DNA of 41,658 nucleotides from Candidatus Omnitrophota bacterium (GCA_023247575.1 JAHFGE010000003.1:24940-66597), one strand, 5' to 3'; counted from the first letter of the stretch, positions 10,645 to 33,812 are shown. Made by a program: numbers and translations. The notes: generated by a model not told the origin, from the sequence alone.

Positions 10645-11043
10645 ATGAATTGGAAAATTTCCAAAGGATTTAGTCTCCCTGAGCTGTTATTGGTAGCCGC
10701 CCTTTTAGGCTATACCTTGTCGGTTGTATTATTGACTTTTTTTAGCGGTACCAGGCTTAACGAGGAGAGCCGTAATTTAATTTCAGCAACCACCCATGCC
10801 GAATTTGTCATGGAAAGCATTAAAAACAGTACCTTTTCCAGCCTTGTAACATACATCAACGGTGGCATGTGGACATGGAATACAGTGACAATAACCAGTA
10901 ACGGGTTAACGGCCTTAAATAGTGAAAACATCACTACAACTTCCAGCGGAACCAATCCGGTGGACGTGACCGTAACTGTTACTTGGAATGATACCCAAGG
11001 AAGGAGCCGATCAAAGATTTTAAGGACTTTGATCTCAAGATGA
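10645..11043 (+). CDS. prepilin-type N-terminal cleavage/methylation domain protein (minor pseudopilin)
   Basis: MNWKISKG|FSLPELLLVAALLG has a G at -1, F at +1 and E at +5, followed by a hydrophobic helix. Confidence 0.7.
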   Translation: MNWKISKGFSLPELLLVAALLGYTLSVVLLTFFSGTRLNEESRNLISATTHAEFVMESIKNSTFSSLVTYINGGMWTWNTVTITSNGLTALNSENITTTSSGTNPVDVTVTVTWNDTQGRSRSKILRTLISR

Positions 11044-11531
11044 TCACAATAGCACAAAACACCAGAGGCTACACCTTTGTAGAAGCTTTAATCAGCGTAC
11101 TCCTACTTTCTGTCATTTTGTTGGGAGTTCACGGTGTTTTGCTAACCGGCAACACGGTTTTCACCAAAGATTCCACTTTGCTCGATATGGAACAGCAGAC
11201 CAGAAACGCTATGGATCGCATGGTCAGGGAAGTCCGCCAGGCATCATCGCAGAACATCATTACCAATTATAACGGTACGACCAATGATTATATTCAATTT
11301 TTTACCCCTACGGCACCCACACCTAATGGACTTCAATATTATTTAAGTGGGACGAATTTGGTAAGGGTCAATAATTCGGGAGTAGCCAAAAATGTAGCCA
11401 GCAATATCGGTCTTTTAAAATTGAGTTTAACAGGATCGCTCTTACAAATCCAGGCAACGGCCCAAAAAACGATGTATTCGGTAACCATTTCTTTCCCCCT
11501 TACAGAGAGAGTGAGGTTAAGAAATGAATAA
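11040..11531 (+). CDS. prepilin-type N-terminal cleavage/methylation domain protein (PulJ/PilW-like minor pseudopilin)
   Basis: MITIAQNTRG|YTFVEALISVLLLSVILLG has E at +5. It overlaps the previous gene by 4 nt. Confidence 0.7.
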   Translation: MITIAQNTRGYTFVEALISVLLLSVILLGVHGVLLTGNTVFTKDSTLLDMEQQTRNAMDRMVREVRQASSQNIITNYNGTTNDYIQFFTPTAPTPNGLQYYLSGTNLVRVNNSGVAKNVASNIGLLKLSLTGSLLQIQATAQKTMYSVTISFPLTERVRLRNE

Positions 11532-14896: not shown

Positions 14897-16983
14897 AAAA
14901 AATATCCCGCACAACCTCATCATTGTTCGATCCTTCTATCGTGGTGCCAGCCATTATTGAGTCATTGAAGAAATTAGACCCCAGGCATCAAATCAGGAAT
15001 CCTGTTATGTTTGTGGTCTGGGTGGGAAGTCTGTTGACGACGGGATTGTATGTGCAGGCACTTTGTGGTCATGGAGAGGCACCGGCTGGTTTTATTCTGG
15101 CGGTTGCCTTATGGCTGTGGTTTACCATTATTTTTGCTAACTTTGCAGAAAGCATGGCCGAAGGTCGGGGCAAGGCCCAGGCAGAGAGTTTACGCAAAGC
15201 CCGCAAAGATACTCCTGCCAAGAAACTATCCAACCTCAAATATGGTTCTGATTATACTACCGTTTCAGCCACAACTTTGCGTAAAGACGATATTGTCCTG
15301 GTGGAACGAGGTGATTTTATTCCTATGGATGGAGAAGTCATGGAAGGGGTGGCTTCCGTTGATGAAAGTGCCATTACCGGAGAAAGCGCGCCGGTCATCC
15401 GCGAAAGTGGTGGCGACCGCTGTGCTGTCACCGGCGGTACACGAGTACTTTCCGACTGGCTAATAGTCCGCATTACCTCAAACCCCGGAGAAACATTCCT
15501 TGATCATATGATTGCGATGGTGGAAGGTGCCAAGAGGCAAAAAACTCCTAATGAAATCGCTTTAAGTATTTTACTGATTGTTTTTACAATTATCTTTTTA
15601 TTGGTTACCGTCACTTTGTTACCTTTTTCGATTTTTAGTGTAGGTGTGGCCGGGCATGGTCAGGTCATTACCGTGACTGTATTGGTGGCCCTGCTTGTCT
15701 GCCTTATTCCGACTACGATCGGCGGATTACTGCCAGCCATTGGGATCGCTGGAATGGACCGCATGATACAGACTAATGTGATCGCTACCTCCGGCCGAGC
15801 GGTGGAGGCAGCGGGAGACGTGGATGTTCTATTGTTGGATAAAACCGGAACCATCACTTTGGGTAACCGGCAGGCGGTTGAATTTATACCTGTATCGGGA
15901 ATAAATATGGAAACATTTGTCGATGCCGTGCAGCTGGCCTCTTTGTCTGATGAAACCCCGGAAGGAAGAAGCATTGTTGTTTTGGCCAAAGCGAAACACG
16001 GGATCAGGGAGCGGCATATTCAGGACATCAATGCTAAATTTATCCCTTTTACAGCCCAGACCAAAATGAGCGGAGTGGACTTGGGAGATGGCCGGCAAAT
16101 TAGAAAAGGGGCCGTGGATGCCATTGATAGTTATGTTAGAAAATTGGGAGGTATATTTCCTGAATCTCTGAAATCTATCGTGGAGACCATATCCAAAAGT
16201 GGCGGTACTCCTTTAGCGGTCGCTGAAAATAATCGTATCCTGGGTATTGTTCAATTAAAAGATATTGTCAAAGGGGGGATTAAAGAACGGTTTGCTGAAT
16301 TACGTCGTATGGGTATTAAGACGGTGATGATTACTGGCGACAATCCTTTGACGGCAGCGGCCATTGCGGCAGAGTCAGGGATGGATGACTTTTTAGCCCA
16401 GGCCACCCCTGAGACTAAACTGAAATTTATTCGCGAGATGCAAACAGGTGGTCGGCTGGTGGCTATGACAGGAGATGGGACCAATGACGCGCCGGCCTTG
16501 GCCCAAGCAGATGTAGCGGTGGCGATGAACACGGGAACGCAGGCGGCTAAAGAGGCCGGCAATATGGTCGACCTTGATTCCAATCCAACCAAACTGATCG
16601 AAGTGGTCAAAATTGGTAAACAACTGCTCATTACCCGTGGTTCTTTGACGACATTTAGTATTGCCAATGATGTGTCCAAATATTTTGCTATTATCCCGGC
16701 GGCATTTGTAGGGACTTACCCGGTACTGGGAGCGCTTAATATCATGCATCTGGCAACCCCGCAAAGTGCCATTTTATCGGCAGTGATTTTTAATGCCCTG
16801 ATTATTATAGCTTTGATTCCATTGTCTTTGTTTGGCGTACCCTACAGGGCTGTAGCTGCCAGCCGCCTGTTAAGGGATAATTTGCTCATTTATGGGGTGG
16901 GTGGAATCATCGCGCCGTTTGCGGGGATTAAATTGATTGATATGATTTTGGTGGGGTTAAAATTAACATCGGGGGGATCATAA
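14893..16983 (+). CDS. kdpB: potassium-transporting ATPase subunit B (P-type ATPase)
   Basis: The true start is the ATG at 14893 ([31 protein letters not shown]), which overlaps the kdpA TGA (ATGA). It carries [15 protein letters not shown] and [21 protein letters not shown]. The ORF-track start 14602 is an out-of-frame overlap with kdpA. Confidence 0.95.
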
Positions 16984-16984
16984 A

Positions 16985-17560
16985 ATGTTATTTGCGCAAA
17001 TCAGACCCGCTATACTTTCTTTTATCCTGCTAACAATAGTCACCGGCATTCTTTATCCGCTTCTGGTGACCGGGATTGCTCAAACTGTTTTTCATAAACA
17101 GGCCGAAGGCAGTTTAATTGTCCAAGATGGAAAAGTACTTGGCTCATCACTGATCGGACAAAATTTTGATGATCCAAAATATTTTTGGGGACGTATCTCT
17201 GCCACCTCACCAGTATACAATGCTTCTTCCTCTACGGGTTCTAACCTGGGGCCATTAAATCCTGCTCTTATGGATGAAGTTAAAGGGCGAATCTCTGCTC
17301 TTAAAGCAGCAGATCCCAATAATACCAACCTCATACCTGTAGATCTGGTGACCTCTTCTGGTAGTGGATTGGATCCTCACATCAGTTTAGCCGCCGCTTA
17401 TTACCAAATCCCCCGCATTGCCCGTGTTAGAGGTTTACGACAGGAACAAATCAAGACAATTGTTGGCCAGCACACTCACGGCCGCCTTTTATGGGTATTG
17501 GGAGAACCAGTGATCAATGTGCTGGAGCTTAATCTGGCGTTGGATGGGCTCCATTCCTAG
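16985..17560 (+). CDS. kdpC: potassium-transporting ATPase subunit C
   Basis: It has an N-terminal TM segment, then ..GSLI..GKVLGSSLIGQNF..YFWGR.SA, VTSSGSGLDPHIS and A.YQ.PRIA. The protein is 191 aa and starts 1 nt after the kdpB stop. Confidence 0.93.
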   Translation: MLFAQIRPAILSFILLTIVTGILYPLLVTGIAQTVFHKQAEGSLIVQDGKVLGSSLIGQNFDDPKYFWGRISATSPVYNASSSTGSNLGPLNPALMDEVKGRISALKAADPNNTNLIPVDLVTSSGSGLDPHISLAAAYYQIPRIARVRGLRQEQIKTIVGQHTHGRLLWVLGEPVINVLELNLALDGLHS

Positions 17561-18400: not shown

Positions 18401-18703
18401 GTGATGGCCAATTTTATTGATTTTGAATGGGATCCTGTTAAAGCCAGAGCAAATTACAAGAAGCATGGAGTATCATTTGAACGAGCAGCGACCGTATTTA
18501 ATGATCCAAGAGCAATTACTATTTATGATGATGAACATAGCACTGTGGAAGAAAGGTGGATTACCTTAGGATTGGATTACAGTGGTGGATTAACTGTGGT
18601 TTCTCATACGTATGCACGGGAAAGTGATCAGACGGTTAGAATAAGGATTATCTCGGCGAGAAAAGCAACGAAATTTGAAATTAAACAGTACAGGGAGATA
18701 TAA
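18401..18703 (+). CDS. brnT: BrnT family toxin (DUF497)
   Basis: FEWDPVKARANYKKHGVSFERAATVF.DP....YDDEHS..EERW..LG......L.VV.HT is the BrnT/DUF497 signature. The start is either GTG at 18401 or ATG at 18404, after the AAGGGAG RBS. Confidence 0.85.
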   Translation: MMANFIDFEWDPVKARANYKKHGVSFERAATVFNDPRAITIYDDEHSTVEERWITLGLDYSGGLTVVSHTYARESDQTVRIRIISARKATKFEIKQYREI

Positions 18704-18706
18704 GAT

Positions 18707-18901
18707 ATGAAAAAAGAATACGACTTTTCAAATGGGACAAGAGGCAAATTTTATAAGAAAGGCATCCAATTAAGGTTACCTATTTATTTAGATTTAGATT
18801 TACAACATAAGCTTGAATCGATGGCCAGTAAACGTCATAAGGCTTTGAATGAAATGGTATCCAACCTTTTGCGTAAAGAAATTCAGTTGGTAAGCAATTA
18901 G
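18707..18901 (+). CDS. brnA: BrnA-like antitoxin
   Basis: This 64-aa ORF starts 3 nt after brnT. It has the KKEYDFSNGTRGKFY motif typical of the small partners of BrnT, and a C-terminal RHH-like helix. Confidence 0.65.
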   Translation: MKKEYDFSNGTRGKFYKKGIQLRLPIYLDLDLQHKLESMASKRHKALNEMVSNLLRKEIQLVSN

Positions 18902-22114: not shown

Positions 22115-22138
22115 GTAGGGGGTACCCGCCTGCCCTAC
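22115..22138. repeat. GTAGGG...CCCTAC palindromic element
   Basis: GTAGGGGGTACCCGCCTGCCCTAC lies 4 nt after the BaxI-like stop. The outer stem is 6 bp and the inner GGGTACCC is a palindrome. Confidence 0.6.
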
Positions 22139-22172
22139 AAAGCCTACGGGACAAAAAATTTCACTTTCCATT

Positions 22173-22202
22173 TTGCATTTTGTTTTTCTTTGTTAATATA
22201 AT
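22173..22202 (+). promoter_or_regulatory. candidate sigma70-type promoter (TTGCAT-18 nt-TATAAT)
   Basis: The -35 TTGCAT is at 22173-22178 and the -10 TATAAT at 22197-22202, about 48 nt upstream of the ATG at 22250. The context is AT-rich, so this could arise by chance. Confidence 0.3.
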
Positions 22203-22249: not shown

Positions 22250-22825
22250 ATGACCCGTGATGAGATATATGACCATCTAGCAAAGGTGTATCTTGGCAAA
22301 CGGCAAAATGCCGCCGACCAAAAGAGGAAGAAAACTTTAAACCAATCATGGCTGGTTATCAATATTGCTATTACCACTGCCATTCTAATATCGACGGTAT
22401 ATGGCTTTACGGCTTTTTTAACCCATCGAGTGGTTCTTAAGAATGAAGTTTTCTATTCTCTCAACAATAATCCGATCCGTATTGTTTATGACCTTAATGA
22501 TCCTTTCCCGGCAACAAAAAATTTTTCTATTATCATTCCCCATAAGGACGTTTCTAAATACAATCGACTCAACCTAAGCATTCGTGGCATGAATGAAGCG
22601 TATCCCGGGGTTGTTAAAATAGTCGTCGGTAATCAGCTTAACGAAAAGGCCACCTATTTTATTAGAAATGTGGGAAACAATTGGCAGAAGGTTAGTATCC
22701 CATTGGAAAAATTGAATTTAACCGAGTGGAGTTCCGTGACAGATATTGCTTTTATACTTGAAGCCTGGAATCTAGACTTTAAAAAAGGTACTGTTTTGAT
22801 AGACGATATAAGTTTTTCGAATTAA
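22250..22825 (+). CDS. hypothetical single-pass membrane protein with C-terminal beta-sandwich (CBM/CIA30-like) domain
   Basis: It has a basic N-terminus (KRQNAADQKRKK), a TM segment (WLVINIAITTAILISTVYGFTAFL) and a C-terminus ending ..W..KGTVLIDDISFSN, reminiscent of carbohydrate-binding modules. No firm family can be assigned. Confidence 0.5.
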   Translation: MTRDEIYDHLAKVYLGKRQNAADQKRKKTLNQSWLVINIAITTAILISTVYGFTAFLTHRVVLKNEVFYSLNNNPIRIVYDLNDPFPATKNFSIIIPHKDVSKYNRLNLSIRGMNEAYPGVVKIVVGNQLNEKATYFIRNVGNNWQKVSIPLEKLNLTEWSSVTDIAFILEAWNLDFKKGTVLIDDISFSN

Positions 22826-22840
22826 TAAGAGGCTTTATTT

Positions 22841-23944
22841 ATGAAAATTATTTCCATAGCCAATCAAAAAGGGGGGTGTGGTAAAACAACAACAGCTATT
22901 AACTTAGCCTCCAGCCTTGGGTATCATGGCAAAAAAGTCCTTTTGATTGATCTGGATCCTCAGGCTCATGCCACGCTGGGTCTTAATGTTGATGAGAGCT
23001 ATAGCCTTTACAATGTTATTTCTAAATTAACTCCCCGTAAATTAGAAATTAAAAAAATTATTAAAACAGTTGATAAAAATTTTAATATTGTTCCTTCTAA
23101 CGTTTTGGTTGGCACTCTGGAACAAGAATTAGCCGATGAAATTGGCCGTGAATTGAAATTGGCTGAGATTATGGTGGAAATCAGGGATGACTATGATTAT
23201 ATCCTTATCGATTGCCCTCCCAGCCTAGGTTTTTTGACAGTCAATGCTATCCGTGCCAGCGATCAGGTGATTATTCCGGTGGAAACCAGTCGTTTTTCCC
23301 TGCAGGGGGTGGATCACTTAACAGACATCGTTAATCTTATTCGAGACCGTCTGAATCATCCGGTGCAAGAAAAGATTCTCGTTACCATGTTTGATTCCCG
23401 TTTGCGACATTCTTTTACCATGCTGGCCAAGATGAAAGAAAAATTTGGCAAACTTCTTTATGATACGATTGTGCATGTTAACGTCAAACTTAAAGAGGCA
23501 GCGGTGATGGGTGAGGCCGTTTTAACATATGACAAATACTGTCGCGGTGCGAAGGATTATTTAAGTTTGGCCAGTGAGATTCTTTTATTAGACAGGCCAA
23601 CCATCCCAACCCCGGGGGTTGAGGAGGTTTATAAGCCGACCCAACGTATGCAGGAGCTCGTGGCTCAAGAGACCAGTGAATTCATTGGTTTAGCTACTTT
23701 TGTTTTGAAAGCGCCCCAGGCTCAGTCGGTCTATGTCACCGGTTCCTTTAATGATTGGTCTTTGGATGAAAAATGCCGTATGATGAATAAGAAAGAGGTT
23801 TGGACCTTGAGCCTTCCGCTGAAGGCAGGTGTTTATAAATATCAGTTTATTGTTGATGGCAGGTGGCAGGAAGACCCTGAAAACAAAAAGACCGAACGCA
23901 ATTCCTTTGGAGATATTAATTCTCTTATTGAGGTTAAAGTTTAA
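22841..23944 (+). CDS. ParA/MinD-family ATPase fused to C-terminal CBM48 (AMPK-beta-like glycogen-binding) domain
   Basis: It has a deviant Walker A (IANQKGGCGKTTTAINLA), A' (VLLIDLDPQ) and Walker B (YDYILIDCPPSLG). The C-terminus VYVTGSFNDWS...LPLKAGVYKYQFIVDGRWQEDPEN...GDINSLIEV matches the GSFNxW / YxYKFxVDGxWxxDP hallmark of CBM48. Confidence 0.85.
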   Translation: MKIISIANQKGGCGKTTTAINLASSLGYHGKKVLLIDLDPQAHATLGLNVDESYSLYNVISKLTPRKLEIKKIIKTVDKNFNIVPSNVLVGTLEQELADEIGRELKLAEIMVEIRDDYDYILIDCPPSLGFLTVNAIRASDQVIIPVETSRFSLQGVDHLTDIVNLIRDRLNHPVQEKILVTMFDSRLRHSFTMLAKMKEKFGKLLYDTIVHVNVKLKEAAVMGEAVLTYDKYCRGAKDYLSLASEILLLDRPTIPTPGVEEVYKPTQRMQELVAQETSEFIGLATFVLKAPQAQSVYVTGSFNDWSLDEKCRMMNKKEVWTLSLPLKAGVYKYQFIVDGRWQEDPENKKTERNSFGDINSLIEVKV

Positions 23945-24261
23945 TGCCAGAAAGTTTTTCCAAGCAAGAAATTCTCGACGGTAAAATCTACGCACTTTTG
24001 GCTTATCTTTCCATTCTTTGCATTATTCCGCTGATTGTTAAAAAAGATAATCCTTTTGTTTTAGCTCACGGCAAACAAGGCCTAGTTCTTTTTATTGCCC
24101 AGACAGCGGTGTGGATTCTCAGCATTGTCATTCCGATGGTTTTGGCACCATTGATGTTTATCTTTATGCTCTTGTCTTTTTGCGGGCTTATTGCTGTTGT
24201 TAAGGGAGAATTTGTACGTCTTCCCGTTGTTGCTGATTGGGCGGATAAAATCTCCTTATAA
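23944..24261 (+). CDS. DUF4870-like small membrane protein
   Basis: ALLAYLSILCIIPLIVKKDNPFVLAHGKQGLVLFI fits the DUF4870 pattern (..iPli..kd..fv.fHakQ.l.l). It has 3 TM segments and a TAATG overlap with the ParA gene. Confidence 0.6.
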   Translation: MPESFSKQEILDGKIYALLAYLSILCIIPLIVKKDNPFVLAHGKQGLVLFIAQTAVWILSIVIPMVLAPLMFIFMLLSFCGLIAVVKGEFVRLPVVADWADKISL

Positions 24262-24263
24262 CT

Positions 24264-24668
24264 ATGTCAATCTTACGGAAGTTATCTGATGTCCTTCAAG
24301 AGGTTTTCTGGATAAAACCTTCTAAGAAAAAATTTTTGCGCAGTCGTAGAGCTCCAGCCAAGAAAGCGCCGAAAAAGAAATTCATAAAGCCGCGGCAGGG
24401 ACCGGCCCGTACACTACCTTTCAATTTAGTCAAAGTTGGTGAAATTACCCATTATTTTGATCGGATTAAGGTTTGTGTCATCAAGGTTACCCAGGGTACG
24501 ATATTGATTGGCGATAGATTGACCATCGTGGGGCCTAAAGTGCAGTTTATTCAGAAAGTATGGTCGATGCAAATTGAAAGTGAGGATGTCAAAGTAGCTA
24601 AAAAAGGTCAGCTCATTGGCCTTAAAATAGATAAGCCGGTGCGGGTTGGCGATATGGTTTATAAATAG
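24264..24668 (+). CDS. translation-elongation-factor-like (EF-Tu domain 2 barrel) small protein with highly basic N-terminal extension
   Basis: The C-terminal 80 aa (VGEITHYFDRIKVCVIKVT.G.ILIGDRL.I.G....F.Q.V.SMQIE.EDV..AKKGQLIGLK.D.PVRVGD.VYK) match the small EF-like beta-barrel family. Residues 18-49 (KPSKKKFLRSRRAPAKKAPKKKFIKPRQGPAR) contain 15 K/R out of 32. Confidence 0.65.
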   Translation: MSILRKLSDVLQEVFWIKPSKKKFLRSRRAPAKKAPKKKFIKPRQGPARTLPFNLVKVGEITHYFDRIKVCVIKVTQGTILIGDRLTIVGPKVQFIQKVWSMQIESEDVKVAKKGQLIGLKIDKPVRVGDMVYK

Positions 24669-24671
24669 AAT

Positions 24672-24854
24672 ATGAAAAATGAAAAAGCCCAAAATGTGGT
24701 GGAATATATTTTGCTTGCTGTTGCCGTTATTTTAGTTTTCCTCATTCTTTTAAATCCTCAGGCTGGTCCCGTGAAACAATCCGTCAATGGTATGCTGTAT
24801 AGCACAGTCGACAAACTTCATAACATGACTCAGGAAATTAAAATTACCCCTTAA
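24672..24854 (+). CDS. small Flp/class-III-signal-peptide-like protein
   Basis: MKNEKAQ|NVVEYILLAVAVILVFLILL resembles the Flp-type prepilin motif (G/A-x-x-x-x-EY plus a hydrophobic helix). The protein is 60 aa. No Tad genes lie nearby. Confidence 0.4.
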   Translation: MKNEKAQNVVEYILLAVAVILVFLILLNPQAGPVKQSVNGMLYSTVDKLHNMTQEIKITP

Positions 24855-25276
24855 TGAAAATCAGCGCTTCCCATAAAGACTTGATCCGTCGCTATTTGCT
24901 TTGGGCGTATAAAACAACCAAAGAATCATTTGAACGCATTGAACGCAAGACCACCCAGCTCATGGTGGATGAGTATATATTAAAGGCATTAAAGCAAAAT
25001 ACTCGGTGCGAGGCAGCCGTACAGAAAGACTATCAAAAATTTATTGAGGAATTTGAACAATATATTGCCAGAAAGAAAGAAGATGAAGTTAAGCAGAAAT
25101 TTGCTGATGGTAGTAGAAAAGTTCTTCATCCTCAGTATATTTATTTAGAAAGGCGTTTGTTGGTTATTGAAGGGGCTATAAAATATTTTTTAGGCCCCGA
25201 TACGCTAAAAACGATGAAAGAGCTTTATGAGAAAGAATTTACCAATCGTATTCTCCAAGCTCGGGAACATACATAA
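24854..25276 (+). CDS. hypothetical cytoplasmic helical protein
   Basis: This 140-aa open frame has a TAATG overlap with the upstream gene and a charged, helical composition. I recognise no motif. Confidence 0.5.
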   Translation: MKISASHKDLIRRYLLWAYKTTKESFERIERKTTQLMVDEYILKALKQNTRCEAAVQKDYQKFIEEFEQYIARKKEDEVKQKFADGSRKVLHPQYIYLERRLLVIEGAIKYFLGPDTLKTMKELYEKEFTNRILQAREHT

Positions 25277-25715
25277 GGTACTCCTGCTTATATTGTTTTT
25301 TTTGATTTCGATAGTCTTTCCATCCCATGCCGCCATTGAAATTTATGCCGGAGGCAAGCACTTTGACTCTTTTGAAGATTATCAAGCAAGTCACCGGAGT
25401 AATTTATTAGATCATATGAAGCTTAGCGGCCCTATTCAAGAGAGCCGTCAGGCTCCATTTATTTCAAGGGAAGTTCGCCGAAAGTTAGACAAAATCAGTT
25501 ACAATAGTGGCGTGTATCATGTTATTGTAGACTTCCAACAGAATTGGCAGAATCCTAAACCTCGGTTTATTATGGATGCTCAGGAGCTTCAGGATGTGCT
25601 TCAAGAAACCATAGAAGGCCAACAGGGGCCGGTGCTTTTGATTTCCGACCCTAAGAAAATGCGGATTATGTCCTATTCTTCAAATTCAAATGTTGAGAAT
25701 AAACAGAAGCAGTAA
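25227..25715 (+). CDS. hypothetical secreted protein
   Basis: It has a signal peptide (VLLLILFFLISIVFPSHA|AIEIY) and is 162 aa. It overlaps the upstream ORF by 50 nt, so the start is uncertain. Confidence 0.5.
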   Translation: MRKNLPIVFSKLGNIHKVLLLILFFLISIVFPSHAAIEIYAGGKHFDSFEDYQASHRSNLLDHMKLSGPIQESRQAPFISREVRRKLDKISYNSGVYHVIVDFQQNWQNPKPRFIMDAQELQDVLQETIEGQQGPVLLISDPKKMRIMSYSSNSNVENKQKQ

Positions 25716-25729
25716 TTAAGGAGGGGTAT

Positions 25730-25909
25730 ATGGCTGAAGAAAAGAAGGAAGAAAGTTGTTCAACGAAGGGCGGCTGTGGTTGCTGTAGCGGAGTTAAACA
25801 GCTTATTATTGGGCTGCTTTTAGGGGCGTTGATTTTCGCCTTTGGCTATTTTGTCGCCCAGGGTGGATGTCCTTTCGGTTCTAAAATATGCCCATTGATG
25901 CAGCGTTAA
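25730..25909 (+). CDS. 59-aa Cys-rich small membrane protein (not in ORF track)
   Basis: A strong AAGGAGG RBS at 25717-25723 lies 6 nt before the ATG at 25730. The sequence is MAEEKKEESCSTKGGCGCCSGVKQLIIGLLLGALIFAFGYFVAQGGCPFGSKICPLMQR, with 7 Cys flanking one TM helix. Confidence 0.5.
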   Translation: MAEEKKEESCSTKGGCGCCSGVKQLIIGLLLGALIFAFGYFVAQGGCPFGSKICPLMQR

Positions 25910-27108
25910 AGGAAAAATTAGTACGGACGATTATCTTGGCCATCATTGGCTGGTATTTGCTCTTGATAGTCGTGCATTATTTTAACCAGCGCCCTTTATG
26001 GAATGATGAACAGTGTATTTTATTAAATATTCAGCAAATGAGGCCTTCGGATCTATTCCACAACCCTTTGCTTAGCTTGCAAGAGTTTCCCCGAACTTAT
26101 CTTTATATCATCCAGCAATTCTCCAGCCATTTTAATTTTCAATTATTGGCTTTACGTTTTTTTCCGTTTGGCAGTATGTTGACAGCTTTTTTTATTTGGA
26201 TTTATTTAGCCCAAAAGCAAATACCGTCTTTAATAGGCCTTTTAACGTTTTTTTTATGCTGGGCTGCCAGCGCACCTTTGATCTATTATGCAGCTGAATT
26301 GAAGCAATATTCTATGGACGTACTGGTAAGCTCTTTATTTCTACTTTTTTTGTATCATCAAAAAACTTTCCGAAAACATTTCTGCGGGCCAATATATGCG
26401 TTGATCTTATTGCTTCTTGCAGTTTCAGGGCTGTTGTCTTATCCTGCGTTCTTTTTTATGCCGCTACCTTTATATAACCTCTGGATGGATGCTAAAGAAG
26501 ATTCTCGCTGGCGGCCATTGGTATGGCTTTATCTGCTTAGTTGCCTCGGTTGTTTTCTCGCTGTTTACTATTTTGATTTTCGCGTTAGTACCAGCAATAT
26601 TGCTTCATTAAAAGTATATTGGAAAAATTATTTTATTTCTTTTGATTCCCCAGTACATTTTTTTAGAAGTGTGCAAGAAGGGTTAAATGGATTTATATCC
26701 CGCTGGTTTGTTGAAAAACCCAGATGGATCCGCATGGCCGCAAGATTTTTTGTGGGGATCGGCTTTCTGCGCCTTTTGCTGGGGGCTTGGCCTATATTTA
26801 AAAAAGAAGGATTGCATTTTATGAGTATTCACAGCATTGCGGGTATTGTTTTTTTAGAATATTTTATTCTAAGTGCCTTTAAAAATATTGCCTTCGGAGT
26901 TCCACGGGTCTCTTTATTTTTTGCTCCCATGCTTTTGTTTCTGACGGTTGATGCTCTCCAATGGCTTAAGCAGCACAATGGAGTTCTTTATGCGTTGGCA
27001 CAGTATCCTTTTTTAATTTATCTGCTCTACATATCCTTAGGCATTGCCAGGATGATTTTTGCGGGGGATTTGGGCGCAGAACCATTTATTTGGAGACAAA
27101 TAGTCTGA
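25888..27108 (+). CDS. polytopic membrane protein, possibly GT-C (ArnT/PMT-like) glycosyltransferase
   Basis: About 10 TM segments. The first loop, RPLWNDEQCILLNIQQM, resembles the DE-containing loop of the GT39/GT83 families. The assignment is weak. Confidence 0.45.
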   Translation: MPIDAALKEKLVRTIILAIIGWYLLLIVVHYFNQRPLWNDEQCILLNIQQMRPSDLFHNPLLSLQEFPRTYLYIIQQFSSHFNFQLLALRFFPFGSMLTAFFIWIYLAQKQIPSLIGLLTFFLCWAASAPLIYYAAELKQYSMDVLVSSLFLLFLYHQKTFRKHFCGPIYALILLLLAVSGLLSYPAFFFMPLPLYNLWMDAKEDSRWRPLVWLYLLSCLGCFLAVYYFDFRVSTSNIASLKVYWKNYFISFDSPVHFFRSVQEGLNGFISRWFVEKPRWIRMAARFFVGIGFLRLLLGAWPIFKKEGLHFMSIHSIAGIVFLEYFILSAFKNIAFGVPRVSLFFAPMLLFLTVDALQWLKQHNGVLYALAQYPFLIYLLYISLGIARMIFAGDLGAEPFIWRQIV

Positions 27109-27161
27109 CATTAATTTTGCGGTATGCTATACTTCTTTTAATATTTTAATAGGAGCAGGTT

Positions 27162-28697
27162 ATGCGTGCAGGAGTTATTGATATAGGATCATCAACGACT
27201 AAATTGCTTATCGGCGAGCGCCAGGGAGAAGATGTTAGAATTATAGAGTCCCTTAAAAACGCCGTGCCTTTAGGTCGCCATGCCTTTTTAAAACCTCGTA
27301 TCCCACAGACCATCATTAATCAAACCGCCTCTGTCTTACAAAAGTATAAAGAAACGCTTAAAGAATATGATGTTTCTGATGTCACTGTCATCGCCACCAC
27401 CGCTGTACGCGAGGCCCGTAATCAGGACATTTTTTTAGATACAGTTTTACGCAAGACTGGCTTTAAGATCGACGTACTTAATGTTGGTGATGTGGTGTAT
27501 TACATTGATTATTTCCTCTCTCATAAGCTCAAGAAAACCTATCCAGTGGATGAAAAGAATTTATTGATTGCTGAATTGGGCGCAGGAAGTCTTGACATGT
27601 CGGTGATGGAAAAAGGTCTAACCTTGGTCAATATTGGTTTTCCTGTCGGTACCCTTCGTTTATCTCAGTTTATGGAACATTTAGATGGCTCTATGCAGGA
27701 AATCCATGAGGCTACCGAAGAGTATATTGAGAATGAAATCCTGTTCTTGAAAAAGAATAATCCATCCTTGAAAATCGACGATATCATCTTGATCGATGAG
27801 AATTATTCCGTTTTTATTCAGAATATCCTGCCTAACAAACGTCGCGATTCGGATTTTTTTAAATTTAAATCGTCGGAGGCTCAGGAGTTTCTTTTACGTC
27901 TGCGCCAGATGAACTCGGAAGAAATTGCTAGGACCTATAATGTACCGCCTGATGTTGCCACGACCATCGTAGGTTTTGCCATCATTCTCAATACGCTTCT
28001 GAAAATTAATAAGAGCGAATATGTCTATATCCTGGAAGCTTCTTTATCCGAGGCTATCTTAGCCAACCAGCTTTTCCGTCTGGAAACTTCTGAGAAGACC
28101 GATAAGATAAGTCAGTTGGTTTCTGTGGCGCATTTTCTGTGTCGCAAATATGGCATGGATTTAGATCATCTCAAACACGTGGCCACCATAACACAACAAT
28201 TATTCGATGCTTTTAAGGACATTTTAGGCTTGGATCAGCAGGATCGTCTGTATTTAATTTTGGCGTCCTATTTGCACGATTTGGGTATGTTTATCAATAA
28301 TCGCTCTCACCACAAACACAGCGAATACATTATCAGCTCTTCCAATCTGTTTCGCCTGACAGAAGATGAGATTAATATCATTGCTTGCATTGCCCGCTAT
28401 CATCGACGGTCAGCACCTTTAAAGACCCACTTGGTTTATAACTCCTTATCTTCCCAGCAGCAGATTTTAGTCCAGAAACTCAGTGCGCTTTTGCGTATTG
28501 CCAATGCTTTGGATCGTTCGCATAAGCAAAAGGCCAAGGGTTTAGAAGTGAAGTTTAATGCTAGCGGTGACGCCACTATCATTGTTTACACCAACGAGAA
28601 TTTTTTATTGGAAAAAGAAAATTTTTTGGAGAAAAAGGAACTTTTTGAAGAAATTACTGGCAATCAATTGACGTTGGCGGTCAAAAGCCAGCAGTAG
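27162..28697 (+). CDS. ppx: exopolyphosphatase / Ppx-GppA family phosphatase with HD domain
   Basis: It has an actin-like ATPase fold start (MRAGVIDIGSSTTKLLIGE, AELGAGSLD) and a C-terminal HD region (YLHDLGMFIN.RSHHKHSEYII, ARYHRRS). The protein is 511 aa. Confidence 0.88.
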   Translation: MRAGVIDIGSSTTKLLIGERQGEDVRIIESLKNAVPLGRHAFLKPRIPQTIINQTASVLQKYKETLKEYDVSDVTVIATTAVREARNQDIFLDTVLRKTGFKIDVLNVGDVVYYIDYFLSHKLKKTYPVDEKNLLIAELGAGSLDMSVMEKGLTLVNIGFPVGTLRLSQFMEHLDGSMQEIHEATEEYIENEILFLKKNNPSLKIDDIILIDENYSVFIQNILPNKRRDSDFFKFKSSEAQEFLLRLRQMNSEEIARTYNVPPDVATTIVGFAIILNTLLKINKSEYVYILEASLSEAILANQLFRLETSEKTDKISQLVSVAHFLCRKYGMDLDHLKHVATITQQLFDAFKDILGLDQQDRLYLILASYLHDLGMFINNRSHHKHSEYIISSSNLFRLTEDEINIIACIARYHRRSAPLKTHLVYNSLSSQQQILVQKLSALLRIANALDRSHKQKAKGLEVKFNASGDATIIVYTNENFLLEKENFLEKKELFEEITGNQLTLAVKSQQ

Positions 28698-28735: not shown

Positions 28736-30781
28736 ATGGAACTAAAAGATAAATTTATTCATAGAGACTTAAGCTGGCTGGAGTTTAACCGCCGAGTTTT
28801 GGAAGAAGCGGCGGATGAACGTAATCCCCTGTTGGAGCGCTTGAAATTTTTAAGTATTTTTAGCAGTAATCTGGACGAATTTTACATGGTGCGTTTGGCA
28901 GGGGCCAAGAAGCTCTTGGCCTCTGGTTTTAATCGTAAAGATCAATTCGGGTTTACTCCTCAGGAGATATTTGCCGAAGTTAAACTAAAAGCCGATAGCT
29001 TAGTCAAAGACCTTTACGATATTTATACCGGTTCACTCAAGGTAACCCTGGAGACTAACAGGATTTACCTAAAGACCATTGATCAGTTAAATGAGACCCA
29101 GAAAAAGTTTGTTAAACGTTTTTTTGATACCACGCTTTATCCCATCATTACGCCCATGGCGGTCGATCAAGGGCATCCTTTTCCTGACCTTCCTTCGAAA
29201 ACCATTGCTTTGGCTGTCTCCATTGTTCGCTTGGAGAAAAACCATTTAGCCTTGGTCCCTGTACCGAAATCTGTACCACGTCTACTTAAACTGCCTTCCG
29301 AAGGAGAAGACTTTGATTTCATCTTGATCGACCATTTGATTAAGGACAATCTGAAAGATTTTTTTAAAGGATATAAAATTCAAGCAGCCTCGGCCTTTCG
29401 CTTACTGCGTGATAGTGACATTGCTTTCGATGAGGAATTCGCGCCCAATTTACTTAAGGCTATGGAAAAGGAGTTGAAAAAACGTACAAGCGCTCAAACG
29501 GTTTACGTGCAGATGGAGCAGGCCCCGACCGTACTACCATCTGGGGAGGTGGCTAATGCCGAATTGGTTGATGTCCTCTGCAATGGACTTGGCTTCCCAA
29601 AAGAAGAAGTGGCTTTTGTCCCCCCTGATTTGGATTTGACGTTTTTTTATGAGATGGCTAATAGCATTGACCGGCCCGGAGGACGTTTTGATAGTTTCTC
29701 GCCAGTCAAAACTCCTTATGAAAATATTTTCGACAAAATCAAAGAAGAGGATTTTATCATTCACTTGCCTTTTCAATCCTTCTTTCCAACGGAGGATTTG
29801 GTGCAGACCTCTGCCAAAGATCCGGATGTACTGGCCATTAAAATGACGCTTTATCGTACTAATGAAGATTCTAATATTATTAAAGCGCTTATGGAAGCGG
29901 CTAAGCGACGCAAACAAGTCACGGCTGTGGTTGAGATCAAGGCTCGGTTTGAAGAAGAAAAGAACATTCAATGGGCCCGGGATCTGGAGCAGGCTGGTTG
30001 TCATGTCATTTACGGGATTGCTGGTTTAAAAATTCATTCCAAGATGACCTTAATTGTCCGTCGGGAAGAAGGACGCATCCGCCGGTATGTACACCTTTCT
30101 ACTGGTAATTACAATGAAAAGACAGCGCGCCTGTATACGGATATTGGATATTTTACTGCCAATGATGATTTCGCCCGCGATGTGGCTGACGTTTTTAACG
30201 TCATTACCGGTTATTCGCAACCCAGTCCCTGGAAGAGGGTTATTTCTTCGCCGTATGATTTACGCAAATACTTTTTAGATCTCATCGATCGCGAAATGGA
30301 GCATCAAAAAACTCATAAAAATGGCCTTATTACCGCTAAAATGAATTCTTTAGAAGACGTAGCTATGATTGAGAAGCTTTATGCAGCTTCCCAGGCGGGG
30401 GTTAAAATCCGGATGGTGGTACGAGGGATTTGCTGTTTGATTCCGGGGGTAGAGGGTTTAAGTGAGAATATTGAAGTGAGCAGTGTGGTTGGTCAATTTT
30501 TGGAGCATTCACGAATTTTTGTTTTTCACAATAACGGCACCCCAAGAATTTTTTTATCCTCGGCAGACTGGATGACGCGCAATTTCGACCGTCGCATTGA
30601 GTTGTTATTTGAAATTACTAAACCTGAAATTAAAACACACTTGCAATTCATATTAGATAATTATTTAAAGGATAGTTTTAAGGTGCGTATTTTGAAAAGT
30701 AATAAAATTTATACACGTTTATCAAAGGATCAGGCATCTTTTAGCGTTCAGGAATATTTTATTAAGCATTATACGAAATAA
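28736..30781 (+). CDS. ppk: polyphosphate kinase 1
   Basis: It carries FIHRDLSWLEFNRRVLEEAADERNPLLERLKFLSIFSSNLDEFYMVR plus two PLD-like domains (KIHSKMTLIVR, ..FLEHSRIF). The protein is 681 aa. Confidence 0.95.
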   Translation: MELKDKFIHRDLSWLEFNRRVLEEAADERNPLLERLKFLSIFSSNLDEFYMVRLAGAKKLLASGFNRKDQFGFTPQEIFAEVKLKADSLVKDLYDIYTGSLKVTLETNRIYLKTIDQLNETQKKFVKRFFDTTLYPIITPMAVDQGHPFPDLPSKTIALAVSIVRLEKNHLALVPVPKSVPRLLKLPSEGEDFDFILIDHLIKDNLKDFFKGYKIQAASAFRLLRDSDIAFDEEFAPNLLKAMEKELKKRTSAQTVYVQMEQAPTVLPSGEVANAELVDVLCNGLGFPKEEVAFVPPDLDLTFFYEMANSIDRPGGRFDSFSPVKTPYENIFDKIKEEDFIIHLPFQSFFPTEDLVQTSAKDPDVLAIKMTLYRTNEDSNIIKALMEAAKRRKQVTAVVEIKARFEEEKNIQWARDLEQAGCHVIYGIAGLKIHSKMTLIVRREEGRIRRYVHLSTGNYNEKTARLYTDIGYFTANDDFARDVADVFNVITGYSQPSPWKRVISSPYDLRKYFLDLIDREMEHQKTHKNGLITAKMNSLEDVAMIEKLYAASQAGVKIRMVVRGICCLIPGVEGLSENIEVSSVVGQFLEHSRIFVFHNNGTPRIFLSSADWMTRNFDRRIELLFEITKPEIKTHLQFILDNYLKDSFKVRILKSNKIYTRLSKDQASFSVQEYFIKHYTK

Positions 30782-30804: not shown

Positions 30805-31797
30805 ATGCATTACTACGTCGGCATTGACATTGGCGGTACCAAGATGGCGGCGGTTATGATGATGGATAGTGGCCGCATTATTTCTCGCCTTAAAGTATCC
30901 ACTCCAGATCAAGCAAACCCTAAAAATATTTTGGCTTGTTTAGTAACATTGATTGAGGAATTAAAATCATCTTCGTCGGTAAAATCCTCTGAAATTAAAG
31001 GTATTGGGGTGGGTGTCCCTGGTATTGTGGATACAGACAAGGGACACATTTTAGCCGCTCCCAATATACGTTTGACCGGTTTTCCTTTAAGTGAACATTT
31101 AAAAAAGAAATATAGAACCAAGATTATCCTAGCTAATGATGTCAATGCTGGTCTTTTAGGGGAAGCCTGGTTAGGGGCGGCTCGTGGTTTTAATCATGTG
31201 GTCGGTATTTTTCCCGGCACAGGAGTAGGGGGGGCTGCATTAGTCAATGGTCATTTGATTTTAGGTGCTCAAGGCGCTGCTACAGAGTTAGGTCATATGA
31301 TTATGCACATCAATGGGCCTTTATGCCATTGCGGCAACCGCGGCTGCTTGGAAGCCTTGACCAGCCGCTGGGCCATAGAGCGTGATATACGGGCTCTCAT
31401 TAAAAAGGGGCGTAAAAGCATCATCAAGGACCTTAATAAGGGCAGTTTAACCACTATTAAAAGCCGGGTGCTGAAGGAAGCTTTGCAAAAAAATGATAGA
31501 GTGGCCAAAACTGTTTTAAAGCAAGTGGCAGTGAGTTTAGGCCAGGCCTCGGTTTCCATTAATCATATTTTTAATCCTCAAGCCATTGTTTTGGGTGGAG
31601 GAGTGATCAAAGCCTGCGGGTTTTTTATGCTTCCTATTATAAAAAAGACGCTTCAAGCGGACCCTTTCTTTAAACGCTTCAATACCTGCCAGATCTTCCA
31701 ATCCAGCCTGGGGGATGATGCTGTGCCTTTAGGCGCGGTCCGATTGGTACAAACTACCAGCCGAAGGGATTTTACGATTCACCCTCTTGTCTTTTAG
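30805..31797 (+). CDS. glk: ROK family glucokinase
   Basis: It carries YVGIDIGGTKMAAV, NDVNAGLLGE, ELGHM and the ROK zinc motif CHCGNRGCLEA. Confidence 0.85.
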   Translation: MHYYVGIDIGGTKMAAVMMMDSGRIISRLKVSTPDQANPKNILACLVTLIEELKSSSSVKSSEIKGIGVGVPGIVDTDKGHILAAPNIRLTGFPLSEHLKKKYRTKIILANDVNAGLLGEAWLGAARGFNHVVGIFPGTGVGGAALVNGHLILGAQGAATELGHMIMHINGPLCHCGNRGCLEALTSRWAIERDIRALIKKGRKSIIKDLNKGSLTTIKSRVLKEALQKNDRVAKTVLKQVAVSLGQASVSINHIFNPQAIVLGGGVIKACGFFMLPIIKKTLQADPFFKRFNTCQIFQSSLGDDAVPLGAVRLVQTTSRRDFTIHPLVF

Positions 31798-31983: not shown

Positions 31984-32178
31984 ATGCATATGAGAACAAC
32001 ATTAATTCTTAACGAAGATATTTATAAAAAAGCAGCGGAGATGACTGGCGTCAAGGAGAAAACTGCCTTAATTCATATGGGACTGCAGACCTTGATTGCA
32101 CATGAGGCTGCCCGTCGTCTGGCTAAATTAGGTGGAAGCGAAAAACAGCTTAAAGCCATCCGTCGCCGTAGGTTTTAA
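31984..32178 (+). CDS. vapB: type II antitoxin, VapB family (DUF2191-like)
   Basis: (MH)MRTTLILNEDIYKKAAEMTGVKEKTALIHMGLQTLIA.EAARRLAKLGGSE is the typical VapB_antitoxin sequence. An alternative start is the ATG at 31990. Confidence 0.8.
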   Translation: MHMRTTLILNEDIYKKAAEMTGVKEKTALIHMGLQTLIAHEAARRLAKLGGSEKQLKAIRRRRF

Positions 32179-32179
32179 T

Positions 32180-32545
32180 ATGATCCTCGTAGACACCTCC
32201 GTGTGGATTTCCCACCTGCGACGGCATAATCAGCAACTGGATAATCTGCTGGGCTTTGAATTCGTTTTTTGCCATCCCTTGATTATTGGAGAGATTTCTT
32301 GTGGCCAGTTGAAAGAGCGGTCTTTAGTGTTGACTTTACTTGAGGAGTTGCCCCAGGCTTCTATTGTGACTCATCAGGAGGCTATGAATTTTATTGAACA
32401 TCATCATCTTATGGGACGCGGCCTGAGCTTTATTGACATACATCTTTTAGCGTCTTGCCAAATAACCAATCTTTCCCTTTGGACGGAAGATAAAATCCTG
32501 CAAAAAGTTGCCCACCAGCTTGGCTTGGCCTTTATTATAGTTTAA
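32180..32545 (+). CDS. vapC: type II toxin VapC, PIN-domain ribonuclease
   Basis: MILVDTSVWISHLR (Asp5), GEIS, FIDIHLLA and WTEDK supply the PIN acidic residues. The ATG at 32180 lies 1 nt after the vapB stop. The ORF-track start 32132 overlaps vapB. Confidence 0.85.
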   Translation: MILVDTSVWISHLRRHNQQLDNLLGFEFVFCHPLIIGEISCGQLKERSLVLTLLEELPQASIVTHQEAMNFIEHHHLMGRGLSFIDIHLLASCQITNLSLWTEDKILQKVAHQLGLAFIIV

Positions 32546-32608: not shown

Positions 32609-32654
32609 CATTTCCTCTTTTATCACTACCTATTGAATGACAAGAGGTTACAAG

Positions 32655-33812
32655 ATGCGCATTGCGTTTTTCTCATGGGAGGCGGTCCATTCCGTTTTTG
32701 TCGGCGGTATTGGTCTTCACGTCACTGAGCTCGCCTGTGCCCTGGAACGCAAAGGCTACGAAGTGCATGTTTTTACGCGCATGGCCCGTCCTGATCATCT
32801 CACCTATGAATGTATCGATGGGGTTCACTATCACCGATGTCCATTTGCCAGCCATCCTGATTTCATAGAAGAAGTGGCCAATATGTGTCGTTCTTTTGTG
32901 GATACTTTTTTGGCTACGGAAGACTATATTGGTGGCTTTGATGTCATTCACGGCCATGACTGGCTGACAGCCTTTTGCCTGGAATGGATTAATAAAGCCC
33001 GACGCCATAAAACCGTTTTTACGATTCATTCCACGGAATATGGTCGCTGTGGAAATAATTTTTTTAATGGCCATTCTCAACATATCCGTCATTTGGAATG
33101 GTTAGGTTCTTACTGTAGCGACCAGGTTATTACGGTATCTAATGCCTTAAAGCATGAGGCTATGGGGATGTACAGTATCCCCGAATCTAAAGTCGATGTT
33201 GTCTATAACGGTGTTAGCTATTCGGATTATAACGGTTGGATTGACCCCGGAGATGTCAAACGTCAGTACGGGATTGGGCTCATGGATCCCATGGTCCTTA
33301 TTGTCGGCCGTATCGTCTACCAAAAGGGGCCGGACTTGCTGGTTAGTGCGATCCCTTCTGTTTTAAGCTTTTATCCCAATGCCAAGTTTGTCTTTGTGGG
33401 TGATGGAGAAATGCGGTGTGAAGTTGAACAACAGGCTCGTAACATGAGGGTGTCTCATGCAACGCGTTTTTTGGGCAAGCAAAGTTCCTGGCGTTTGAAA
33501 GATTTGTTCAAGTCCACGGATTGCGTCTGTGTCCCTAGTCGTAATGAACCTTTTGGCATTGTTATCCTGGAAGCCTGGAGCGCTGGAAAACCAGTTGTGG
33601 CCACCACCAATGGTGGCCCCAATGAGATTATCTGGCACGATGTCAATGGGTTAAAAATTCAAGATAATCCTGAATCCATAGCGTGGGGAATTGGAACACT
33701 CTTTAAAGATTTTGATCACGCTCGCTGGATGGGGCACAATGGCCGAATGACTGTGGAGACGTCTTTTTCGTGGGATGTTATCGCCAATGAAACGCTTCAT
33801 GTTTATAGTTGA
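32655..33812 (+). CDS. glycogen synthase-like glycosyltransferase (GT4/GT5, GT-B fold)
   Basis: It carries MRIAFFSWEAVHSVFVGGIGLHVTELACALERKGYEVHVFT and a C-terminal EPFGIVILEAWSAGKPVVATTNGGPNEII (E-x7-E). The AGAGG RBS lies 7 nt before the ATG at 32655; the ORF track starts at 32637. Confidence 0.8.
   Translation: MRIAFFSWEAVHSVFVGGIGLHVTELACALERKGYEVHVFTRMARPDHLTYECIDGVHYHRCPFASHPDFIEEVANMCRSFVDTFLATEDYIGGFDVIHGHDWLTAFCLEWINKARRHKTVFTIHSTEYGRCGNNFFNGHSQHIRHLEWLGSYCSDQVITVSNALKHEAMGMYSIPESKVDVVYNGVSYSDYNGWIDPGDVKRQYGIGLMDPMVLIVGRIVYQKGPDLLVSAIPSVLSFYPNAKFVFVGDGEMRCEVEQQARNMRVSHATRFLGKQSSWRLKDLFKSTDCVCVPSRNEPFGIVILEAWSAGKPVVATTNGGPNEIIWHDVNGLKIQDNPESIAWGIGTLFKDFDHARWMGHNGRMTVETSFSWDVIANETLHVYS

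Follow-up and report, generated by a model that had tools for sequence, protein, structure and literature searches.

The 41,658-nt stretch of DNA considered here (hereafter the window) comes from a Candidatus Omnitrophota bacterium (GCA_023247575.1, JAHFGE010000003.1:24940-66597) and contains a block of nine consecutive genes on the + strand (g1-g9, Table 1), the second of which encodes a ParA-type ATPase joined to a carbohydrate-binding module (CBM) of the CBM48 family. An original prediction had described these genes as one translationally coupled array and a single functional unit. Its coordinates and junctions match those found here: in order, the junctions measure +15, -1, +2, +3, -1, -50, +14 and -22 nt, with TAATG overlaps at 23944 and 24854, gaps of 2-3 nt on either side of g4 and a 22-nt overlap between g8 and g9. 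The exact sequences of all nine proteins have also been called independently in public assemblies and eight of the nine genes have conserved homologues in synteny; all nine open reading frames (ORFs) are therefore real genes. The list of contents was also essentially right, as Pfam, Foldseek, alignments and hydrophobic segments fit the calls for g1-g9, and the statement that only the ParA half has a known biochemistry is supported. What did not survive is the unity of the block: g1-g2-(g3)-g4 form a deeply conserved core, g5-g8 are accessory genes confined to particular clades, and g9 is an insertion specific to the lineage.

Table 1. Features of the window. Coordinates count from the first nucleotide of the window.
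Feature	Coordinates	Strand	Length (aa)	Description
g1	22250-22825	+	191	Bitopic membrane protein; transmembrane segment at about residues 33-57; predicted extracytoplasmic CBM-like beta-jelly-roll
g2	22841-23944	+	367	Soj-type ParA (residues 1-250), linker, C-terminal CBM48/AMPK-beta-type domain (about 285-366)
g3	23944-24261	+	105	Three-transmembrane DUF4870 (MamF/MmsF-like) protein
g4	24264-24668	+	134	N-terminal amphipathic helix (..LxEVFWIKPS), K/R/P/A-rich tract, C-terminal beta-barrel
g5	24672-24854	+	60	Flp-type pilin-like peptide; class III signal-like motif and hydrophobic helix
g6	24854-25276	+	140	Soluble protein, predicted helical; motif RRYLLWxYKTTKE..R..R..TQL.VD
g7	25227-25715	+	162	Sec-type signal-peptide-like N-terminus; fast-evolving
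g8	25730-25909	+	59	Cys-rich mini membrane protein (CGCC... transmembrane ...C-P-F..C-P), one hydrophobic segment
g9	25888-27108	+	406	Polytopic membrane protein, about 9-11 hydrophobic segments
ppx	27162-28697	+		Pfam families
ppk1	28736-30781	+		Pfam families
ROK glucokinase (glk)	30805-31797	+		NCBIfam ROK
glgA-like GT4/GT5	32637-33812	+		Pfam
DUF4912	33825-34916	+		Pfam
GH57+BE_C branching enzyme	34909-36588	+		Pfam
495-aa protein	36585-38072	+	495	No family match
GlgB (GH13)	38127-40073	+		NCBIfam 984.7 bits, cutoff 741
GH57+DUF3536	40380 to window end (41657)	+		Pfam; runs off the end
glgC-like nucleotidyltransferase	387-1592	+		At window start
Type IV pilin-like genes	10645-12861			Two (pseudo)pilin-like N-termini and a third gene, DUF7305
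kdpA-kdpB-kdpC	13061-17560			Potassium-pump genes
BrnT-type toxin and partner ORF	18401-18901			PF04365; in a 602-nt gap
Antitoxin-like ORF and VapC-type PIN toxin	31984-32545			Antitoxin-like ORF at 31984-32178

Gene order was compared over 80 genome loci retrieved with an alignment of ParA-CBM48 proteins and three further loci (L081-L083) obtained by exact look-up, and the core was defined by comparison with 22 Omnitrophota loci. The order g1-g2-(g3)-g4 is kept across the Omnitrophota at 49-92% ParA identity, and the pairing of g1 with g2 reaches down to 41%. The order g1-g8 is kept in L001, L002, L081 and L082; g5-g8 are lost below approximately 55-65% ParA identity, whereas g1, g2 and g4 persist. 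It is because the depth of synteny differs among the genes in this way that the block divides into core, accessories and insertion. The neighbourhood conservation by which the original prediction proposed to judge the block is thus present for the core, with g5-g8 shallow and g9 absent from the nearest relatives; judged in this way, a nine-gene unit is contradicted by g9 and made less credible by g5-g8.

The ninth gene is a lineage-specific insertion between g8 and ppx and stands outside the conserved module. It is absent from L081, L082 and L002 (92%, 81% and 76% identity, respectively), in which g8 is followed directly by ppx; a 72-nt spacer (L081 3764-3837) lies where g9 sits in the window, and L001 contains only two g9 fragments (13802-14345), beside an FKBP gene. 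The protein itself has no direct Pfam match and a PDB sequence search returned nothing. However, among its homologues (n=1453 in the representative library) P0370 (40% identity, E 3.5e-82) scores 27.3 against PMT_2, with a cutoff of 26.1, P0480 scores 41.9, and relatives of 500-580 amino acids also match PMT_2. By transitive homology g9 is therefore probably a remote GT-C (PMT_2/ArnT-like) glycosyltransferase homologue; a 'WNDE' sequence follows its first transmembrane segment. Confident homology of members to unrelated housekeeping pathways had been named in advance as evidence against a nine-gene unit, and the probable placement of g9 in this superfamily therefore counts as such.

The packing of the genes says less about a common function than it might. 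Nearly all genes of the 41.6-kb window lie on the + strand, so the shared orientation of g1-g9 is uninformative, and 15 of the 30 junctions outside the block are likewise no longer than 15 nt; finding eight such junctions in succession is thus no more than mildly out of the ordinary. The signals placed at the upstream boundary are both present, but neither can be distinguished from background. The GTAGGG...CCCTAC palindrome (22116-22139) folds with -14.1 kcal/mol, no better than its shuffles (z = -0.74), and was rejected as a boundary terminator; no T-run lies 3' of it. The TTGCAT-18-TATAAT element (22173-22202) went unreported by the promoter scanner because its -35 hexamer matches at only 3/6 positions. 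Between 20000 and 32500, a region that includes the block, 34 promoter-like matches compare with 29.1±5.7 in shuffles and 17 terminator-like matches with 14.0±3.3. With internal signals at shuffle level, a single transcript is neither supported nor refuted. Rfam families and tRNAs were not found in the window, and a repeat search within the block gave short chance-level matches only. That g1-g9 form one co-transcribed functional unit of cytoplasmic, membrane and exported parts we regard as very improbable. Eight junctions of at most 15 nt in a row, several with stop/start overlaps, the lack of internal promoter or terminator signals above background and the order g1-g8 shared by four loci would all fit such a unit. 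Yet g9, a probable member of a glycosyltransferase superfamily, is missing or a remnant in the closest relatives, g5-g8 disappear with moderate divergence of the ParA, and half of the other junctions in the window are equally tight.

The centre of the core is g2. Its N-terminal half matches AAA_31 (1e-55) and CbiA (2.3e-17) in Pfam and contains a deviant Walker A motif (KGGCGKTT, residues 10-17) together with the further Soj motifs DxDPQ and IDCPPSLG and a conserved Arg in an MFDSR segment. In the PDB alignment the Arg of 'TMFDSR' aligns with the segment of Soj that holds the Arg that binds non-specific DNA, which is a hint, at sequence level only, of matrix binding. The best PDB matches are ParA 8ray (1.7e-49) and the Thermus and Helicobacter Soj proteins (approximately 2e-38), the McdA structures being distant matches (approximately 1e-13); CBP_BcsQ matches at E 2.4e-12 as one among many ParA-superfamily matches. 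Moreover, the ParA domain is 45-48% identical to the chromosomal Soj of Bacteroidota and Bacillota. A linker with the conserved motif Y-x-P-S-x-R-M-x-E-L leads to the C-terminal domain, and because the C-terminus is a CBM48 there is no amphipathic membrane-targeting helix at that end. This domain matches AMPK1_CBM (60.1 bits, cutoff 26.8, E 2.5e-16) and CBM_48 (28.3, cutoff 22.4) and aligns to AMPK beta1 (1z0n) with E 7e-10. In the AMPK beta1 structures 1Z0M/1Z0N the residues that contact sugar are W100, K126, W133, L146 and N150. W306, W342 and N360 of g2 stand at the positions of W100, W133 and N150, with F356 at that of L146 and Q335 at that of K126, and all five are invariant in 22 homologues. 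By these motifs g2 is a Soj-type deviant-Walker-A ATPase fused to a CBM48 that keeps three key sugar-binding residues of AMPK beta, and it falls within the sequence definitions of both the ParA/MinD family and CBM48. Homologues form more than 120 clusters at 69-92% identity, with deeper ones in other phyla. In two non-Omnitrophota lineages (L026, L031) a different conserved neighbourhood was observed, in which another ParA-like gene of divergent sequence (CbiA E 7e-8) comes after ParA-CBM48; beyond it are genes for an uncharacterised protein, a CAAX protease of Rce1-like type and a URO-D-like protein.

A Soj-type ATPase would ordinarily be sought beside a ParB. As a control, the ParB box II motif (GERRxRA) was searched for within ±10 kb of ParA-CBM48 loci and of plain-ParA loci from the same scan. 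It was found at none of the 38 ParA-CBM48 loci compared with 35 of the 46 plain-ParA loci, and no ParB family occurs among the neighbours scanned. Therefore, g2 lies outside any parAB operon, and a canonical operon of this kind was rejected. The same control weighs on the reading of g2 as a glycogen-sensing chromosomal Soj, the chromosome or cell-cycle ParA of its lineage, which would couple segregation or replication to energy stores through an acquired CBM48 like that of AMPK beta, with g4 as a ParB-like partner. Such a role seems unlikely, given the missing ParB motif and neighbours that are storage-polymer genes rather than origin-proximal ones, although the close identity to bona fide Soj with all Soj motifs, the MFDSR Arg included, and the partner-like N-terminus and H1-like tract of g4 described below are consistent with it. 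The best 80 genome loci included no Omnitrophota ParA of the plain kind, as might be expected if g2 were the chromosomal protein; the scan used specific peptide patterns, however, and this absence is therefore weak evidence.

The most deeply conserved partner of g2 is g1, which lies directly 5' of ParA-CBM48 in every Omnitrophota locus with upstream sequence (ParA identity 49-92%). Upstream of the 41%-identical ParA-CBM48s of L023-L025 and L029, too, there is a homologous protein with a transmembrane segment and a CBM, in which the cytosolic motif hLAxΦYΦ is kept. Its homologues (n=297) are all Omnitrophota-type. The protein begins with a predicted cytosolic peptide, MTRDEIYDHLAKVYLGKR, and its first 18 residues show no variation among 25 sequences; a polybasic stretch separates this peptide from the single transmembrane segment, and the charge distribution predicts an N-in, C-out topology. 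The AlphaFold2 (AF2) model (pLDDT 71.6) resembles CBM11 (1v0a, E 1.3e-7), CBM8, CBM4 and CBM28 in Foldseek. We regard g1 as a core member and as a candidate membrane anchor or ATPase partner.

A second candidate ParA partner or adaptor is g4, found downstream of ParA-CBM48 in 16 of the 17 genome loci with enough sequence, and in L081-L083. Across its homologues (n=346) E13, F15, W16, K18 and S20 are invariant, so that there are two candidate ParA-partner peptides in the core, the invariant N-termini of g1 and of g4. The histone-H1-like tract that follows varies between 30 and 83 amino acids and is 34% K+R and 58% K+R+P+A, with almost no D/E. The barrel was modelled with a pLDDT of approximately 80-90 over most of its length and approximately 70-80 around residues 91-110; its Foldseek matches are 4he5 (U32 C-terminal domain, E 3.6e-5), followed by IF2, EF-Tu and Pbp11, which makes it a barrel of the translation-factor/U32-C type, unrelated to phasins. 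The remaining core gene, g3, is a frequent but non-universal member, following ParA-CBM48 in 13 of 19 genome loci and in L081-L083. Its own Pfam score for DUF4870 is below cutoff (18.7 bits against 25, E 0.0018), while precomputed matches list PF09685 for g3 and its orthologues without a weak mark (E ≤ 1e-5). A magnetosome link through this MamF/MmsF-like protein was dropped because no other magnetosome families occur in the window or the loci.

Gene neighbourhood has served as a criterion for assigning cargos to ParA/MinD (A/D) ATPases (PMC10241942). Genes of alpha-glucan metabolism occur near ParA-CBM48 in at least four distinct arrangements. GH57 lies directly 5' of g1-g2 in L010-L017; in L082 glgB and GH57/DUF3536 come just after ppx-ppk-glk; in L030 malQ, GH57/DUF3536 and glgP adjoin a 40%-identical ParA-CBM48, with a GH57+BE_C gene 8 kb from that of L031; and the window itself contains a full glycogen cluster together with a glgC-like gene (Table 1). 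The original prediction had placed the block immediately upstream of ppx-ppk1-glk, and this is true of the window and its closest clade, the trio following the block in L001, L002, L081 and L082 only; elsewhere other genes follow. The upstream flank in the closest clade consists of Porin_O_P, pstSCAB, phoU and an Alginate_exp-type porin. In more distant Omnitrophota the adjacency of ppx-ppk1 is lost, and L003, L005 and L006 have rpsO-pnp-ftsK-rodZ downstream.

These flanks invite a reading in which polyphosphate (polyP), not glycogen, is the cargo: g4 would bind polyP as AlgP does, with ATP-driven spacing of the granules coming from g2 and CBM48 being secondary or a link between polyP and glycogen. 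The position of the block between pstSCAB-phoU-porin and ppx-ppk1 in the closest clade, the 34% K+R of the g4 linker and the spacing of polyP granules by AlgP through a comparable tract (PMC13052382; PMC13081873) are consistent with it. Even so, we consider a polyP organiser improbable, as ppx-ppk adjacency is confined to ParA identities of at least approximately 75% and the more distant loci of Omnitrophota show GH57 on the upstream side, with downstream genes that are unrelated (or, in L003, L005 and L006, rpsO-pnp-ftsK). Moreover, the alpha-glucan module is the only domain with a predicted ligand, and DNA and RNA are equally good ligands of polybasic tracts.

Several further observations concern the flanks of the block. 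An Alginate_exp outer-membrane beta-barrel (approximately 450-540 amino acids) is encoded 5' of g1 or of GH57-g1 in L001-L004, L006, L007, L011-L016, L018 and L082. The window is without this barrel and has MiaB-PgsA-PgpA-BaxI at that place, which indicates a rearrangement. A CTGACA-17-TATACT element with an extended -10 TG (27105-27133) occupies part of the 53 nt that separate g9 from ppx. Six sites of the scanned region, this one included, share the top promoter score (10/12), and its position suggests that ppx-ppk-glk may be transcribed from a start of its own. A small antitoxin-like ORF and a VapC-type PIN toxin (NCBIfam E 4.3e-8) sit between glk and the glycogen cluster, whereas in L082 glgB directly follows glk.

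The outer-membrane barrel also enters into another explanation, namely that an ATPase acting as BcsQ does in cellulose secretion localises or assembles a complex of g1 and g3 for an exported or periplasmic polysaccharide, with the Alginate_exp barrel as conduit. In favour, the folded domain of g1 resembles a CBM and has a predicted extracytoplasmic location, g5, g7 and g8 are predicted to be exported or membrane proteins, and an Alginate_exp porin precedes g1 or GH57-g1 in most Omnitrophota loci. The porin follows pstSCAB-phoU, however, and may therefore be phosphate-related, and while CBP_BcsQ does match g2 (E 2.4e-12), the resemblance of g2 to Soj is much closer. The conserved module contains no GT2 synthase, PilZ, Wzx/Wzy or ABC exporter, and CBM48 is cytoplasmic and of the alpha-glucan type. 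An envelope-glycan machine thus appears quite improbable.

Our preferred reading, to which we give somewhat less than an even chance, is that the g1-g4 core (with g5-g8) is a ParA/MinD-type system for positioning or anchoring cytoplasmic glycogen granules, possibly coupled to polyphosphate. It is suggested by the architecture of g2, the conservation of its residues, the synteny of the core, the neighbouring storage genes and the absence of ParB. A storage-granule organising module had already been put forward as a possibility in the original prediction, and it is this idea that the neighbourhood and CBM48 evidence favours. Mechanistically, the ATP-bound g2 dimer would bind a matrix, most likely the nucleoid, by homology to Soj, or else the membrane through g1, while its two CBM48 modules would hold glycogen particles, so that one protein would be both matrix and cargo binder. 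The N-terminal peptide of g1 and/or g4 may dock at the ParA dimer and either stimulate ATP hydrolysis or recruit the ATPase. It is through charged N-termini that known partner proteins of A/D ATPases work (PMC10241942). For g4, the K/P/A-rich tract could bind DNA or polyphosphate in the manner of AlgP, PhaM and PhaF, whose H1-like tracts tether polyhydroxybutyrate (PHB) and polyP granules (PMC13052382). As an outcome, the scarce storage granules of very small cells would be spaced, anchored and inherited.

A number of points weigh against a glycogen-granule system. The first is g1, which the granule model leaves unexplained although this membrane protein with its predicted outside domain is the most deeply conserved partner; nor does the model offer an explanation of g3. 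Glycogen genes are found at varying distances, and several of the distant loci, such as those of Desulfobacterota (L020, L022), do not have them nearby. Within CBM48, the position of AMPK K126 is taken by an invariant Gln (Q335), and the region also gives a weak match to a type IX secretion system (T9SS) plug. E-set and CBM48-like domains can, moreover, mediate protein contacts instead. In classical diffusion ratchets the cargo binder is the partner and not the ATPase; here it is fused to the ATPase, and the arrangement would therefore be more of a tether than a classical ratchet. Lastly, the 45-48% identity to Soj leaves room for a chromosome-related role of g2.

The accessory genes are less deeply conserved. 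The motif K-G-Q-N-x-x-E-Y-I-L-L (G/XXXXEY) of g5 is present in L001-3, L006 and L008, the copy in the window having Ala for Gly; matches to Flp1_like (0.026) and Flp_Fap (0.061; 13.6 bits against a cutoff of 32.2) are both sub-threshold. The block and the flanking genes scanned include no tad genes (prepilin peptidase, secretin, TadA-C, TadZ), and a Tad pilus locus around g5 was rejected for this reason. In L003 (11973-12404) and L008 (3082-3594) the g5 homologues are 143-170 amino acids long, with a C-terminal Cys-rich extension; in the window such a Cys-rich element forms a gene of its own, g8, which occurs only in the closest clade (L001, L002, L081, L082). Homologues of g6 are present in L001, L002, L007-L009 and L081-L083 and are kept to approximately 55% ParA identity; there was no above-threshold match in Pfam or NCBIfam, and a PDB profile search found nothing. 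An alignment of g7 with L001-3, L006, L081 and L082 reveals a hydrophobic N-terminus followed by an A-x-A-like site, and identity is 30-53% where that of ParA is 76-81%; significant matches in Pfam, NCBIfam or PDB profiles were not found. A search with the PADLOC defence models gave only two weak P-loop-level matches, both to g2, the remaining eight proteins being without any, and an anti-phage defence system was rejected on this result.

Elsewhere in the window, two genes 12 kb from g5 and unrelated to it encode type IV (pseudo)pilin-like N-termini (KGFSLPELLL... and RGYTFVEALI...). The mechanical ORF of kdpB (TTG at 14602) overlaps kdpA by 295 nt, and its true start is therefore probably further downstream. 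The BrnT-type toxin (100 amino acids) and its 64-amino-acid partner ORF lie 5' of a MiaB/RimO-like gene.

No prior description was found in the literature searched on ParA with CBM48 or glycogen, or on Omnitrophota with glycogen or polyphosphate. The cargos that reviews list for ParA/MinD ATPases and organelle localisation are chromosomes, plasmids, carboxysomes, flagella, chemoreceptor arrays and the divisome (one of the reviews is PMC13052382). A recent review regards it as unknown whether energy is spent on positioning storage granules, and glycogen is mentioned in neither of two reviews; for polyP granules the positioning mechanism is otherwise unknown beyond the AlgP tract (PMC13052382; PMC13081873). 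Against this background, g1-g4 might be the first ATP-driven ParA/MinD system for a storage-polymer granule, perhaps including polyP, with a built-in cargo binder and trans-envelope and H1-like regulators, though we think this claim in full rather unlikely. A widespread and highly conserved ParA with a domain of the alpha-glucan-binding type is nonetheless a concrete candidate for the active organisation of glycogen granules, and it brings with it two new candidate types of partner protein, one of them membrane-anchored. If the reading is true, glycogen particles in some bacteria would be actively positioned organelles and not a passively dispersed polymer. The cells of Omnitrophota are ultra-small and hold few granules each, and their fitness could depend in part on passing on energy and phosphate reserves faithfully.

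Among known systems, McdA/McdB is like the present one in that the gene of an orphan ParA-type ATPase lies near genes for a non-DNA cargo, with the nucleoid as presumed matrix, and in that a small downstream protein (g4 versus McdB) combines an N-terminus that is charged and conserved with a basic region that is disordered. Unlike McdA, the ATPase here carries the predicted cargo binder itself; the cargo would be a polysaccharide granule and not a protein shell, the most conserved neighbour is a membrane protein and g4 is without sequence homology to McdB. Carboxysome or bacterial microcompartment (BMC) genes, by which an McdAB locus would be recognised, were found neither in the window nor in the loci. 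From Soj/ParA-Spo0J/ParB the ATPase domain takes its level of identity, deviant Walker A, DxDPQ, IDCPPSLG and the MFDSR Arg, but the system departs from it in the lack of a ParB motif (±10 kb, 38 loci), in the extra CBM48 and in its membrane, beta-barrel and storage-polymer neighbours.

On the side of the membrane, HubP offers a comparison for g1: this polar landmark is bitopic with an outer LysM domain, where g1 has a CBM-like one, and its cytosolic part could recruit ParA-like ATPases. There is, however, no sequence homology to HubP/BcsQ systems, the cytosolic part of g1 is only approximately 30 residues long and the module contains no synthase, flagellar or chemotaxis genes. The Bcs partners that would mark a Bcs locus (GT2 synthase BcsA, BcsB) were not among the scanned neighbours. 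The CBM48 of AMPK beta and the N-terminal CBM48 of GlgB and isoamylase belong to the same fold family as the domain of g2, which keeps both Trp residues and the Asn of the AMPK sugar site but is fused to a P-loop ATPase instead of a kinase scaffold or glycoside hydrolase and has Gln at the K126 position.

The proteins PhaM, PhaF and PhaH of PHB granules and AlgP of polyP granules resemble the proposed system in that one polypeptide is both granule binder and DNA-binding surface (PMC13052382); g4 has a K/P/A-rich H1-like tract of a similar kind to those of PhaM, PhaF and AlgP, and a role in granule spacing and inheritance would be common to both. They differ in being non-ATPases without ParA homology, for which glycogen is no known cargo, whereas here an ATP-switchable Soj-type dimer would be the DNA binder and CBM48 the granule binder. 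Taken together, these comparisons place the module with the ParA/MinD type, from whose known members it differs in its predicted cargo, in a cargo binder built into the ATPase and in its candidate partners.

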